Shown piece after piece: positions 42-35,279 of a stretch of DNA of 64,000 nt (position 1 is its first letter; each line of letters begins with the position of its first letter). The stretch is from NCBI GenBank assembly GCA_963727805.1, contig CAVSHF010000003.1:960001-1024000 (forward strand), written 5' to 3'. Source of the stretch: an uncultured Nitrospiraceae bacterium. Lineage in GTDB: Bacteria > Nitrospirota > Thermodesulfovibrionia > Thermodesulfovibrionales > Dissulfurispiraceae. The notes beneath the pieces are model-generated. The model was given only the letters and a program-made list of their open reading frames with translations. It did not search any database and was not told where the DNA came from. Both the position numbers and the translations under genes were made by a program.

Positions 42-162
42 TGGAGAGAGGCAGTGGGAATCGGACCCACTCTCGGTTCATTAATATATGGCAAGCGCTC
101 AATTGCCTTGAACCGTGATGCTGGTTTTGCACACCAGATGAGGCACCAGCCCCATGCCCCCC
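42..162 (-). tRNA. non-canonical tRNA-Cys(GCA)-like RNA with tRNA-Sec-like fold and very long variable arm (copy 1)
   Basis: Minus strand: acceptor GGGGGGCA/TGCCTCTC, D-arm GGGGC-TGGT-GCCTC, anticodon arm CTGGT-GT-GCA-AA-ACCAG, ~50 nt extra arm (CGGTTCA/TGAACCG, GGCAA/TTGCC), T-arm GTGGG-TCCGATT-CCCAC, then T-CCA. Confidence 0.8.
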
Positions 163-340
163 GGAAACAGCTCAGAGTAGAGACGGTCATCTCCTATTAC
201 TTCATCCATACGATGGAAACAGTAGCTTATTTGACCAGATATGGTTTCCGAACCGGAATGGCGAAACTGAAGAGTATTCATATTTTCATTCAATTCGCCT
301 TTATTGATACGTCGTGGGTAGTTGTCTCAGAGAGTGTACT
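163..340 (-). ncRNA. conserved structured leader fused 5' of the tRNA-like domain (copy 1)
   Basis: Colinear and highly similar to 34318-34494; stems GAGAC/GTCTC, GGCGAA/TTCGCC, TTCCG/CGGAA, TCCAT/ATGGA. Confidence 0.6.
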
Positions 341-349
341 ATATTTAAG

Positions 350-373
350 GCCTATGCCTATGCCTATGCCTAT
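350..373. repeat. (GCCTAT)x4 tandem hexamer
   Basis: Four exact units read directly; copy 2 has three degenerate units. Confidence 0.9.
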
Positions 374-397
374 GATAGCCCGGTGGATCATTAGCAG
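372..397 (-). promoter_or_regulatory. putative promoter of the tRNA-like RNA (-10 TATCAT)
   Basis: ctgc-w-aatgatccacc-rr-gctatcatag is conserved with 34521-34546; no good -35. Confidence 0.4.
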
Positions 398-775
398 TTA
401 AATTAATATAGATGATGTCAATATGTAAAATAGATTAATTGAATAGTTTAAACTGGAGTTATAGATTTGTCCCCACAATCTAAAGATGGATGGATGATGA
501 CTGGCTGAGATCCAAGCGTTACATTAAAGTTGCAGATTCGAAATCTACGGGACAGACAGCTTCAAAGAGCCCGCATAGGCCGCATTCAAAATGAATTAAC
601 CGGTGCCCTCTGTCAGCAGGTCGAAAGGCCTTGGCTATTTTATTAGGAAGACCATATTTCTGTAGGAAACCGCACTCGGACTAGCACTCTCCGCATTCAA
701 CGCATTTTTGGCTATCTCAGCCGTCACCGAAAGTGAAGAGATATTCATGTTTGTTCCCCGAGATGTATTCACCTT

Positions 776-32098: not shown

Positions 32099-32920
32099 TT
32101 AAGATATCTTCGCTGCCTTGGCGATCGGTGGGGTCGGGATATTCGAGCCGTGACGTTCGATGCAGTTGCTCTGAGCAGTGATACCGTAGTTTGCAGAAGA
32201 TACAGTACCATTCGTTTCGTACTTGCCGTCCTTCCAGGCATTCAAAAGTTTGACAACATGATAGACCGTGCTTGCGGTGACGCGGGCACAACGGTCCTTT
32301 CGTTCGGGGCTCTTAAGATCTTTGTCTGCTGCCTTCATCCATTTGCAGACCGATATGTGGCAAAAAGGAGAATCGCTGACTGTTTTAGGAAGGACAGTTT
32401 TGATCCTGGGATTGCTGGGCGTGAAGATCGGCATCTGCGCATTGGCATACCAATCAAGCATTTCGCCTCCCATCAGCGCGCCATCTTCAGACCCGGCTAT
32501 CCGAGGCTTATTATCATATTGGCCACTATATTGGCTCCCATAGGCGCGCCGCAGATGGTCCCCCATCCCATGATTCCACCTTCGAGAAGGAGCAAGAGTC
32601 TATATGAAAAGACTTGTATGGCTCTCCAACTTTCTCTCTCAGCTGAGTGAAGACGCTGCTGATCACGGCCGCGCCGCAAAGAGTCGACACCATTCATTAT
32701 GGGCAAGTGCAGCGGTTTGCGCAGGGTCAAGCTTCACATACGGCCATGGCCATTTTTCTGTCGGCCCTTCCCTGGCTTCCGCGTTAGAAAGTAAGTTCCC
32801 GAGCTGATCGGCAGTCGAGCCGATAGCTAATAATCCTGCACCTGCAATGAACTTTCTTCTTGAAACCGTGTCGTTTCCGGATACCTTTTTTTTAATCCTC
32901 CTTTGTATGAAATTATTCAA
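32099..32920 (-). pseudogene. split-Soret cytochrome c / C_GCAxxG_C_C-family pseudogene with three frameshifts
   Basis: Tat SRRKFI and WPWPYVKLDP / CGAAVISSVF..GEPY / GG..GWGTICGA / SPFCHISV.KW..ERKDRCAR are separated by frameshifts; terminal CxxCH reads CIERH. Confidence 0.8.
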
Positions 32921-32983: not shown

Positions 32984-34072
32984 CTAGTCCTTCATTGGCT
33001 TGATGAACATGAAGTAGACCATCGTCCAGTTGCCGAGGATTATAAATATGGTCGCCACGATGCTTGATAGGGCGAGGGATGAAACGCCGGTCAACGCATG
33101 ACCTACGGTGCATCCCCCTGCAGTCGCTGCTCCAAAGCCCATAACGAGGCTGCCAAGGAAAACCCGTATGATTTCATTCGCCGGAGGGGCCTGTAATTTG
33201 AATTCGCCGAGTCCTTTGGCGCTAATGTAAGCGCCTAGTGGAATACCCAAAATATATAAAGCACTCCAGGTGCCCTTGAAAATCCCCCAAAAATTAAACA
33301 TAGGATCGAATTTGGACATACTGTCTCCCATCGTCACGGCTAGGAATGCCTCTGCCGTCGGTCCCGCCGCCGAAAGGCCTCGTGTCTGCCCTCCCCAGTA
33401 ATTTGATGCCCAGAGCGCAAAGATAAGGATCACGCCGATCATGGCGCCGGTGAGGGACCATGAATAGCCTTTCCTCGGTCCCTTGGCAAAGGGCTTCCCT
33501 TTCAGGACAATCGGAATGATGATGAGAGCGATAACGCCGATGACTGCCCATTTCATCGATAACCCGCCAAAGATATCCCACAACGCAGGGTTGAAGACGG
33601 CCTCATCGCCGCTGCCAATCGAAACTTTGTAGCTCTTCAGGAATTCCATGACTGGTTTGAGGGGACCATGATAGGTAGCGATAAGAGAAGAGGCAAAACC
33701 GAGAGTGGCCACGAGAGCGGATGTATAGCCTTCTCCCACACGGTATATTATGCCGCTACCGCAACCGCCGGCCATCACAATGCCAAGTCCGAAGACATAG
33801 CCGCCGACCATATTGGCGATAACATTGAAGGATTGCCTCCTGAGACCGAAATCACCCATAAATCCGAAGTCTTCAAGCAGATTCGCGCCAATGATTGCGA
33901 TCAAAAGTGCCAGCAGATATGACCGGAATAAGGTAAAGTCTTCGAGAAATATGATGTCTCTAAAAGCCGAATTCATGCAGTAACGACCTCTCTGAAGAAC
34001 AAAACCGAAAAGAATACCGACAAAGAGCCCACTTGCCAATACCATAAAACTTGCCTGCTGGACTTCCTCCAT
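32984..34072 (-). CDS. yeeE: YeeE/YedE (TsuA-like) sulfur-compound transporter
   Basis: FGFVLQRGRYC; G.VMAGGCGSG; GFGA..AGGCTVG; multi-TM. Confidence 0.9.
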   Translation of the reverse strand: MEEVQQASFMVLASGLFVGILFGFVLQRGRYCMNSAFRDIIFLEDFTLFRSYLLALLIAIIGANLLEDFGFMGDFGLRRQSFNVIANMVGGYVFGLGIVMAGGCGSGIIYRVGEGYTSALVATLGFASSLIATYHGPLKPVMEFLKSYKVSIGSGDEAVFNPALWDIFGGLSMKWAVIGVIALIIIPIVLKGKPFAKGPRKGYSWSLTGAMIGVILIFALWASNYWGGQTRGLSAAGPTAEAFLAVTMGDSMSKFDPMFNFWGIFKGTWSALYILGIPLGAYISAKGLGEFKLQAPPANEIIRVFLGSLVMGFGAATAGGCTVGHALTGVSSLALSSIVATIFIILGNWTMVYFMFIKPMKD

Positions 34073-34187
34073 AGAGCTTCTCCTTTTTCTTCAATTAATC
34101 ATTTGTGTGGCAATGCCACGACTACCGAATTATCTCCTTTCGTCCATATGACGAACGACCAAGCCGACTTTTTCAAAAAAGGAACAA

Positions 34188-34317
34188 TGGAGGGGAGCAG
34201 TGGGAATCGAACCCACCACGGCACCTTATGAGTGCGACACACTGCTTTGACGCCCGTATGTCTTTAGCCGTGACACTGGTTTTGCAGACCAGGTGAGGCG
34301 CCAACCCCGTGCCCCCC
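34188..34317 (-). tRNA. non-canonical tRNA-Cys(GCA)-like RNA with tRNA-Sec-like fold and branched ~59 nt variable arm (copy 2)
   Basis: Acceptor GGGGGGCA/TGCTCCCC; D-arm GGGGT-TGGC-GCCTC; anticodon arm CTGGT-CT-GCA-AA-ACCAG; T-arm GTGGG-TTCGATT-CCCAC; T-CCA. Confidence 0.85.
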
Positions 34318-34494
34318 GGGAACAGCTCACAAAAGAGACGGCTCCCGCCTTTTACGCTATCCGTACAACGGAAACAGCAGGTTATTTGACTTGATATGGG
34401 TTCCGAACTGGAACGGCGAAACTGAAGGGTATTCATATCTTCATTCGGTTCGCCTTTTTTGATACGTCGTGGGAAGTTGTCTCGGAGAGTGTCC
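34318..34494 (-). ncRNA. conserved structured leader fused 5' of the tRNA-like domain (copy 2)
   Basis: GGACA/TGTTC, GAGAC/GTCTC, TTCCC/GGGAG, GGCGAA/TTCGCC, TGAAG/CTTCA, TCCGT/ACGGA; possible GATATG/CATATC pseudoknot. Confidence 0.65.
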
Positions 34495-35279
34495 TATATT
34501 GAAGGCCTATGCCCATGTCTATGATAGCTTGGTGGATCATTTGCAGATAATTTAGTATTGCTTCAATATATATGTCAAATTGTTTTTGTGGATGGCTTAA
34601 ACGGGAGTAATAGATTTGTCGCTACAATCCAAAAACTGGCGGACGCCGAATGGCGGAGAATGCGGGCGTAACATTAAAGTTACCGGTAACCAACGGTGTC
34701 CCTGAAATATCCGATGCGTTGACTTTTTGGTAACATCAAATAAATGTTCCAGCGATGTTCCTATAATCGACAATGCACTCGACACGGTGAAGACGCTTTG
34801 TTTCAATAAGTAATCGAGAGCGGTACTGTTCGTCAATCTTTACCGAGTTCGTCTCCCTGTCATGTTTGTGAGCGTATAGATAAAAGATTCTCTCAGAGGA
34901 AAAGAACGATAGTTGAGATAATATTTTGAAAGTAATTTGCTATAATTAAACGAATAATAAGAGGTTTATGCTCCACTTTAATCTGCTAGCGTGATATCTT
35001 TCATAGCGCCAGAAGAAGACAGGGGTAGCTGTAAATATGTAACGCCTCGAAGCAGGCTAAGTTCAGTCATCTGATAAAAGGGTGCAATTGATCTCTTTTG
35101 GAAAAAACATCTTTGGCCGGAAGTCGTCTCCAACCAAGACATCTACGCTAACTTCGGGCAACTCCCTCCAAAAGTATTTATCTCGCATCACAAAAGATCG
35201 ATCTGTTGCTAACGGTGATATAATCAAGTTTCAGACCTCAAGCAAGACAACAGCGATCGTAAACAGGTGGAGATAGACC

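Follow-up and report, generated by a model that had tools for sequence, protein, structure and literature searches.

The closest described relatives of the RNA reported here are the selC* tRNACys species (Mukai et al. 2017, NAR, PMC5389517), which resemble tRNA-Sec, carry a GCA or UCA anticodon, U73 and a long variable arm (V-arm) and, in the parts of that paper considered here, belong to anaerobes with selA, selB, selC and selD in every carrier genome. The class has since been renamed tRNAReC, and the relevant passage of a later paper describes it as inserting cysteine (Cys) at UGA codons accompanied by a selenocysteine insertion sequence (SECIS), with either anticodon (PMC13582414, citing Vargas-Rodriguez 2018). 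tRNAReC is recent and poorly understood, also as regards the conditions under which cells employ it, and blurs the line between cysteine and selenocysteine (Sec) decoding. We analysed a 64,000-nt stretch of DNA (the window) of contig CAVSHF010000003.1 from an uncultured Nitrospiraceae bacterium (assembly GCA_963727805.1; genome G000 in what follows) and find at 34188..34317, on the minus strand, a 130-nt gene (copy 1; RNA position n corresponds to window coordinate 34318-n) that we identify as a true tRNA gene belonging to the Nitrospirota subtype of the selC*/tRNAReC family. Its own variable arm is enlarged to a three-way junction of 56 nt. The class is known; the giant branched arm and the placement of the gene before Cys-type twins of selenoproteins are new.

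Further described systems bear on this locus. Class II tRNAs (Ser, Leu and bacterial Tyr) and allo-tRNAs have, like copy 1, an extra arm between the anticodon and T arms, and according to the part of PMC7590224 that deals with them, allo-tRNAs remained largely functional in E. coli when hairpins were engineered into their V-arm. Regulators of the LysR_Se subfamily cluster with Sec genes, and the archaeal orthologue HrsM keeps Cys-type hydrogenases repressed in the presence of selenium; the same portions of that study single out YedE, YedF and LysR_Se as selenium-linked (Lin et al., PMC5322559).

A tRNA-Sec fold with cysteine identity marks

The preliminary description of this DNA, made from the letters alone, had proposed a tRNA-Sec shape with cysteine identity, and every element of that proposal was found. 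The minimum free energy (MFE) fold and the consensus fold of 15 homologues with expanded arms give an 8-bp acceptor stem (positions 1–8 with 119–126, one G-U pair), which with the canonical 5-bp T stem (T arm GUGGG/UUCGAUU/CCCAC) forms an 8/5 helix. The D stem has 5 bp (10–14 with 19–23) and the 4-nt loop UGGC, and the anticodon stem has 5+2 bp with one bulge and the loop CUGCAAA, within which the Rfam alignment and the MFE fold place the anticodon GCA at 34283..34285. The discriminator U73 (34191) is followed by an encoded CCA (both within 34188..34191), so that the identity marks GCA, U73, G1:C72 and CCA are all present. The GG of the D loop and the T loop are kept, and no conserved tRNA position is visibly defective. 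The MFE amounts to −55.1 kcal/mol (z −2.27), with 3/200 shuffles equally stable. The consensus fold of the 15 homologues comprises the 8-bp acceptor, 5-bp D, 5+2 anticodon, 6-bp arm-closing and 5-bp T stems, with compensatory changes at 7/31 pairs.

A check with ARAGORN and Rfam gave no call for copy 1 at standard thresholds, Rfam being run at the gathering threshold. With permissive filters, the Rfam tRNA-Sec model (RF01852) matches over its full length (model positions 1–91) at 46.1 bits (E 5e-8 for 701 bases searched), 0.9 bit below the gathering score of 47 and with a 41-nt insertion in the arm. Copy 1 thus resembles bacterial tRNA-Sec in its 8/5 fold, 4-nt D loop, long arm and full-length model match, but carries GCA instead of UCA, and U73, whereas the discriminator of tRNA-Sec is G73. 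A separate true selC is encoded in G000 (69.1 bits), together with selA (608 bits), one selB (354 bits) and two selD genes that carry one in-frame TGA each; an ordinary tRNA-Cys(GCA) of 75 nt also lies elsewhere in this genome.

Outside the arm, copy 1 resembles the known members of its Nitrospirota subtype. Its body (5′ 42 nt and 3′ 29 nt) is identical at 66/71 positions to the tRNA of locus L040, which has a normal length of 96 nt, and at 62/72 positions to that of locus L067, which in a comparison of the letters by eye is one metagenomic selC-like entry of the Mukai supplement (PMC5389517). Body identity to Nitrospirota family members of normal length (93–99 nt) is 86–93%, and the selC* tRNA-Cys class is therefore the nearest precedent, as had been supposed. 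Copy 1 has in common with selC*/tRNAReC the acceptor/T domain of more than 12 bp (13 bp, as 8/5), the long D stem with a tetraloop, the extended anticodon stem, GCA, U73, CCA, homology to published members and, as host, an anaerobe with the full Sec machinery (selABCD). It differs from published members in (i) size, the family spanning 92–99 nt overall with a single-hairpin arm of ~22–27 nt and copy 1 spanning 130 nt with a branched arm of 56–59 nt, (ii) its position before a Cys-type YeeE gene, where published members go with selB*/cysS*, and (iii) a ~220-nt leader between promoter and tRNA, found in the window's genus.

None of the 52 selC-like sequences on sheet 3 of the Mukai supplement (PMC5389517) reaches 100 nt, which bears out the initial impression that this arm is far longer than a normal class II arm. 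Enlarged selC*/tRNAReC arms are likewise unmentioned in the literature text searched, including passages of PMC5389517, PMC7609411, PMC7590224, PMC8762117, PMC13582414 and PMC13188914. The novelty first attributed to this RNA consequently falls as regards a new class, since the body matches the described selC* family, and stands as regards the arm, which is expanded beyond the published sequences.

The expanded variable arm

The variable arm of copy 1 (34217..34272, minus strand; positions 46–101) measures 56 nt, or 59 nt with U43–U45 counted. It consists of a closing stem CACGGC/GCCGUG, a linker UAAA, hairpin 1 (GACAUAC...GUGUGUC) and hairpin 2 (GCAC UCAUAAG GUGC). Of the branched arm as originally drawn, the GACATAC/GTGTGTC helix is part of the MFE fold, the CACG/CGTG stem is in fact 6 bp long, and GCAC/GTGC is an alternative hairpin with support from homologues.

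Homologues were gathered in two samples, (i) by BLAST of the leader and tRNA against 40 relatives, which gave matches in 18/41 genomes with the host genome included, and (ii) by a scan for an exact 18-nt anticodon-arm word over a species-genome collection, which gave at least 119 stretches; the titles of the latter, among the matches listed, are mostly those of Nitrospirota or Thermodesulfovibrionales metagenome-assembled genomes (MAGs). Compensatory changes, proposed at the outset as a check on the arm, occur in both the closing stem and hairpin 2. In the consensus fold of the 15 expanded homologues, columns 53/105 of the closing stem read CG in 8, UA in 5 and AU in 1, and in a 10-member alignment restricted to the arm both elements covary, one pair of hairpin 2 being CG in 7 and UA in 3 members. 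Hairpin 1 differs widely in sequence between lineages, and MAFFT cannot align it, yet it pairs in every one. Arm interiors are more stable than mononucleotide shuffles in 15/15 cases (mean z −1.94, with modest single values). The enlarged arm is conserved as a structure, with compensatory changes.

At least 81 unique tRNA sequences were delimited, of which at least 53 are 93–99 nt long (the tRNA of locus L027 counted among them), at least 28 reach 100 nt and at least 20 reach 119 nt. Four long-arm designs can be told apart among the matches listed: arms of ~33 nt, made of a closing stem and one hairpin; arms of 48–61 nt, the design of copy 1, with a closing stem, a 4-nt linker, hairpin 1 and a small hairpin 2; arms of 74–77 nt; and arms of 86–90 nt, which give tRNAs of 158 and 161 nt. 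Each of the latter three designs occurs in more than one genome, again among the matches listed. The tRNAs with branched or long arms in relatives are 119–161 nt long and are spread over several families of the order with the body intact, and even for the forms of 154–161 nt the match to the tRNA-Sec model is complete, at 56.6–56.9 bits. No other Rfam family was detected within the giant arms of six loci at E up to 0.01.

The arm of a natural class II tRNA is one short hairpin; copy 1, in contrast, presents a natural three-way junction, and arms in relatives extend to ~90 nt. Members of the family can have variable arms of 50–90 nt and, as intron-less tRNAs, reach up to 161 nt, which tests the limits of CysRS, SelB, RNase P and the ribosome and offers natural templates for arm-tagged tRNAs in genetic-code engineering. 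On the simplest view, the arm would be a lineage-specific expansion that is tolerated and directed away from the faces of the tRNA that CysRS, SelB and the ribosome use. In the genus, 4/4 sequences agree in hairpin 2 and its loop (CUCAUAAGG) but vary in acceptor-stem pairs, and because of this invariance the sequences suggest that hairpin 2 may bind some partner.

The same invariance would suit a specialised, non-ribosomal carrier of Cys, which was one of two functions offered in the preliminary description. Such a carrier could, for instance, be a scaffold for tRNA-dependent conversion or transfer with the arm as a handle for the enzyme. It is indeed not obvious what use a tRNA of SelB type would have for GCA as its anticodon, and G000 encodes a second CysRS-like protein without an anticodon-binding domain. 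Among the 40 relatives, however, 8 have this CysRS paralogue but no tRNA and 11 have the tRNA but no paralogue, and no candidate enzyme gene consistently adjoins the tRNA. The high body identity to family members of ordinary length speaks against such a carrier as well, and normal-length relatives are reported as active in translation in the sections of PMC5389517 and PMC13582414 considered here. We regard a carrier of this kind as very improbable. A CysRS dedicated to copy 1 was also dismissed, as the paralogue lacking the anticodon-binding domain does not co-occur with the tRNA. That protein (406 aa; G000:C3:1748741-1749952, equivalent to L157:1495-2715, minus strand) is without the DALR and C-terminal anticodon-binding domains, adjoins a NifU-like gene, scores 320.5 with the cysS model against a cut-off of 340, shows a weaker likeness to MshC and is found in 14/40 relatives.

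The preliminary description had assumed a second copy, and one lies at 42..162 of the window on the minus strand (121 nt; GCA, U73 and CCA; 44.7 bits with the Rfam tRNA-Sec model). Its arm lacks hairpin 2 and consists of closing stem and hairpin 1, its T loop reads UCCGAUU and position 32 is a G. Copies 1 and 2 also share ~390 nt upstream, and their homology ends at CCA (78% identity). Copy 2 may be decaying, and its U55C and G32 are among the features that would be expected if the whole gene were a decaying or crippled tRNA, its arm an inactivating neutral insertion and its conservation a matter of recent common descent only. Clear remnants in genomes G003 and G004, the rejection by ARAGORN and the Rfam score just below threshold fit that explanation too. 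It is nonetheless hard to reconcile with the enlarged arms on intact bodies that a number of families within the order retain, with covarying pairs in both closing stem and hairpin 2, with different arm designs that each occur in more than one genome and with a copy 1 devoid of visible defects at conserved tRNA positions, and we give decay of copy 1 little credence.

Other roles considered for the arm were abandoned. Mimicry of a SECIS element is not favoured, the apical hairpins of the SECIS regions of both G000 selD genes and of the selD beside a 146-nt form being unlike the arm hairpins, and a Shine-Dalgarno-like role of the conserved GAAGGAG/UAAGGUG segment was dropped, since pairing in hairpin 2 takes up most of it. 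Still larger tRNAs of this kind occur in other Nitrospirota MAGs (L079:2976-3121, L058:17-164 and L137; L092:2976-3133; L081:2146-2306). The 146–148-nt forms have selD 9–10 nt upstream, locus L079 having in addition a true yedE downstream, and in the 158- and 161-nt forms the arm is a single long imperfect helix.

Downstream Cys-type genes, promoter and leader

Copy 1 is followed on the same strand by the trailer TTGTTCCTTTTTT and, after a 115-nt spacer (34073..34187) with AAGGAG 8 nt before the start codon, by the ATG of yeeE at 34072, an arrangement that agrees with the first reading of the locus. No terminator was called in this spacer. The gene (32984..34072, minus strand) encodes a Cys-type YeeE/TsuA-like transporter of 362 aa (Pfam PF04143, Sulf_transp, 222.8 bits; NCBIfam TsuA 245 bits, below the cut-off of 400). 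Copy 2 precedes, beyond the window, an operon for a Cys-type [NiFe] hydrogenase with the small subunit, large subunit, cytochrome b and HycI.

Both downstream proteins have Sec-type twins in the same genome. G000 has exactly two YeeE-like genes, 65% identical, the one after copy 1 without an in-frame stop and the other with two TGA codons; with TGA read as U, U stands opposite two conserved Cys. Likewise there are exactly two full-length hydrogenase large subunits of this kind, 76% identical; that following copy 2 is free of in-frame stops and its twin has one TGA, U standing opposite the second Cys of the N-terminal CGVC. Large subunits with one TGA are also present in genomes G003, G005 and G007, the position of the TGA having been read in G000 only. 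Within G000 the module of leader and tRNA stands before Cys-type genes only. The tRNA-adjacent YeeE is free of in-frame stops in 5/5 relatives, with a two-TGA paralogue elsewhere in 3/5. In G003, the leader with a decayed tRNA precedes a Cys-type hydrogenase, and a one-TGA hydrogenase lies elsewhere. A SECIS element retained after the Cys codon of the Cys-type paralogues was considered and discarded, a matching hairpin being present at 1/3 sites (hydrogenase) and thus inconsistent.

The twins themselves show some unusual features. The one-TGA hydrogenase, of periplasmic [NiFe] type (G000:C3:1352725-1354278, equivalent to L164:1453-3171, minus strand), has RICGVU in its RxCGxC motif and keeps Cys in the C-terminal DPCxxC; classical [NiFeSe] enzymes have Sec in the C-terminal motif. 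The two-TGA YeeE (G000:C5:569902-570873, equivalent to L168:1447-2550, minus strand) has Sec sites at RGRYU and AGGUTVGH, keeps Cys in the middle GGCGSG and shows candidate SECIS hairpins after both TGA codons. For the selenoprotein YeeE/YedE family, the portion of PMC13188914 used here gives one Sec, in GUxSG.

Upstream of copy 1, a promoter-like site TTGACA-18-TAAATT was called at 34549..34578 (minus strand), which aligns with TTTAC(A/T)-N17-TATATT of copy 2 and congeners. Between it and the tRNA lies a leader of ~220 nt (34318..34548, minus strand) that alignments show to be common to copy 2 and congeners; leader and promoter of copy 2 occupy 163..560 on the minus strand, with the motif TCTATTTTACATATTG from window position 434. 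The leader contains a 3-codon mini-open reading frame (ORF), ATG-N6-TGA, whose stop overlaps a second start (ATGAAGATATGA), and a conserved Cys codon, and the start of the leader peptide is conserved as M-N/S-x-x-x-F-R-R-S (window 34318-34548 and 163-434; loci L011, L012, L015, L020 and L029). Two hairpins are predicted within it, and a hairpin with a U/A-rich run lies directly 5′ of the tRNA. At 34336..34350 (minus strand) this is a terminator-like hairpin AGGCGG GAG CCGTCT, followed by CTTTTGTG and 18 nt before the tRNA; by eye, the leaders of relatives have a hairpin of other sequence at the same place. The leader could be an attenuator. A structured RNA is not supported, with compensatory change at 0/13 predicted pairs and no Rfam match. 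Intact leaders also precede decayed tRNAs in G003 (L020:1640-1760; anticodon loop and T arm lost) and on contig C60 of G004 (L015; T arm lost), and contig C244 of G004 (L029) has a leader without any tRNA.

The family shares a promoter word. With no more than 3 mismatches, the 16-nt word TCTATTTGACTTATTG is found on the tRNA strand in the 400 nt upstream at 32/78 loci with enough flank and starts 41–43 nt before the tRNA in 19 of those 32 loci (both among the matches listed), against a background of 10 matches in the 487,866 nt that make up the remainder of the same loci. It contains a −35-like TTGACT and is preceded by ATAG-N7-CTAT in 9/16 upstream regions inspected; LysR boxes have the form T-N11-A, which this inverted repeat fits. 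In the window's genus the word lies 252–283 nt upstream, because the conserved leader is inserted there. The sole other good match in G000, AATCTATTTGACATATCG, is at C3:819282 on the minus strand, before a 148-aa ORF.

A terminator-like hairpin and a leader with small ORFs directly upstream are also what a cis-acting, tRNA-like leader would show. In such a case the RNA would stay in the yeeE or hydrogenase transcript, bind CysRS, SelB or another factor and control read-through, stability or translation, and in the form first put forward it would couple Cys/CysRS status to sulfur uptake. Leader and tRNA are duplicated as a unit before two different operons, tRNA and yeeE lie on the same strand 8–115 nt apart at 7 unique loci among the matches listed, and at loci L016 and L097 the CCA ends ~10 nt before a Shine-Dalgarno sequence. 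A cis-acting leader should always stand 5′ of one regulated gene family, but the downstream genes vary, many of them are unrelated, and in 9/47 loci among the matches listed the next gene is on the opposite strand. All tRNA hallmarks, including the T loop, the D-loop GG, U73 and an encoded CCA, are retained, and the hydrogenase of G003 keeps the leader with the tRNA decayed, so regulation there needs no tRNA. We therefore consider a cis-acting element unlikely, and the proposed coupling to Cys status is not supported, in view of these lone loci and of the selenium genes that surround the family.

Selenium-gene neighbourhood and proposed role

We determined the gene neighbourhood for 47 unique word-scan loci with at least 2 kb of DNA, and all counts for this set apply among the matches listed. 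The nearest upstream ORF is of the LysR family in 16/47 loci, in 15 of them on the tRNA strand, and every LysR ORF tested against NF040786 (selenium metabolism-associated LysR) passes (10/10, or 11/11 with one from a relative). The upstream neighbour is selD in 3/47 loci. For normal-length tRNAs (35 loci), the first downstream gene on the same strand is selB in 4, a TusA-domain gene of 196–220 aa in 5 and YeeE/YedE in 0; the one TusA-domain protein tested, from L040, is YedF above cut-off. In comparison, a Sulf_transp gene follows eight unique expanded tRNAs on the same strand, again among the matches listed, being YeeE/TsuA-like in seven (copy 1, L011, L012, L016, L017, L085 and L097) and a true YedE in L079, where selD lies 10 nt upstream of the tRNA. 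The link to yeeE noted at the start is accordingly real and recurrent. Judged by LysR_Sec_metab, selD, yedE, yedF and selB as neighbours and by the two-Sec partner of YeeE elsewhere in the genome, the coupling looks selenium-related rather than one to cysteine supply.

This setting recalls the LysR_Se/HrsM Sec/Cys switch of Methanococcus, as outlined in the parts of PMC5322559 considered here. The two are alike in that a LysR_Se-family regulator lies beside the locus in relatives and that the Cys-type hydrogenase and YeeE have Sec-type twins in the same G000 genome. They differ in that the present system is bacterial, a tRNA gene is part of the unit and regulation by selenium is here a prediction.

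The reading that we favour, and that we hold to be rather probable, is that copy 1 functions as a tRNAReC and, probably through co-transcription with Cys isoforms, serves as a back-up at low selenium. By analogy with published work on the family, CysRS would charge copy 1 with cysteine, SelB rather than EF-Tu would be its carrier because of the 13-bp acceptor/T helix, and Cys would be put at SECIS-dependent UGA codons. Transcription would start from the family-conserved promoter, which in relatives bears ATAG-N7-CTAT and closely follows a LysR gene of the selenium type, and a selenium-sensing LysR regulator would be in control. Given gaps of 8–115 nt and no terminator called after the tRNA, copy 1 is probably co-transcribed with the Cys-type YeeE, and copy 2 likewise with the Cys-type hydrogenase. 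At low selenium, the tRNA that inserts Cys and the isoforms free of selenium would then increase jointly. This hypothesis, which is testable, makes the insertion of Cys at Sec codons part of the same selenium-shortage response as the change to Cys isoenzymes.

More tentatively, and in our estimate doubtful, the locus may be a hard-wired selenium-shortage unit in which one transcript from a LysR_Se-type promoter yields both a SelB-dependent Cys tRNA and a selenium-free isoform, with the arm as a docking site for a partner. The isoform would be YeeE for copy 1 and the [NiFe] hydrogenase for copy 2, and ordinary tRNAReC would be without the partner of the arm. Such a partner might block SerRS and SelA from making Sec on the tRNA, or might tie processing or use of the tRNA to the downstream message. 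In that case, natural intron-less tRNAs of 130–161 nt would be functional and no accidents.

Several points weigh against a working tRNAReC that backs up selenoproteins at low selenium. (i) Charging, SelB binding and recoding are carried over from papers on other members of the family. (ii) No LysR_Se gene lies beside either copy in G000, whose two such genes lie elsewhere, and the promoter of copy 1 has diverged from the family word TCTATTTGACTTATTG, although it is still called promoter-like. (iii) A scan of all of G000 for this word with up to 2 mismatches returned 6 sites and no clear regulon, and a genome-wide regulon based on the word was accordingly discarded. (iv) A one-TGA hydrogenase of G005 lies ~1.4 kb downstream of tRNA and YeeE on the same strand, so that the presence of only Cys isoforms downstream is no rule. 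(v) Within this genus the gene can decay, as is seen from copy 2, which has U55C and G32 and lacks hairpin 2, and from the remnants of G003 and G004. (vi) Expanded arm and yeeE may go together through a single arrangement that was inherited, and not through repeated selection. (vii) The sample was picked by an exact 18-nt word and by our own query, so its proportions are not prevalences.

Some further genes accompany these loci. Downstream of yeeE, an ORF at 32099..32566 (minus strand) resembles split-Soret cytochrome c (NCBIfam NF047622, 73.6 bits, below cut-off), a family also found near the tRNA in relatives L018 and L024. Elsewhere in G000, a LysR_Sec_metab gene (283 bits) lies head-to-tail-opposed beside a Sec-containing selD (G000:C5:156495-158420), and the members of a second pair lie apart (LysR at C3:409131, selD at C3:482960). 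Recurrent neighbours of the tRNA in other genomes are C_GCAxxG_C_C proteins and 2-hydroxyacyl-CoA dehydratase/activase-like genes (L064, L073, L082 and L087 downstream; L041, L044, L056, L062, L092 and L099). The former family has known Sec forms according to the portion of PMC13188914 used here, and the latter genes also occur beside LysR_Se in the part of Lin et al. (PMC5322559) that lists its neighbours.

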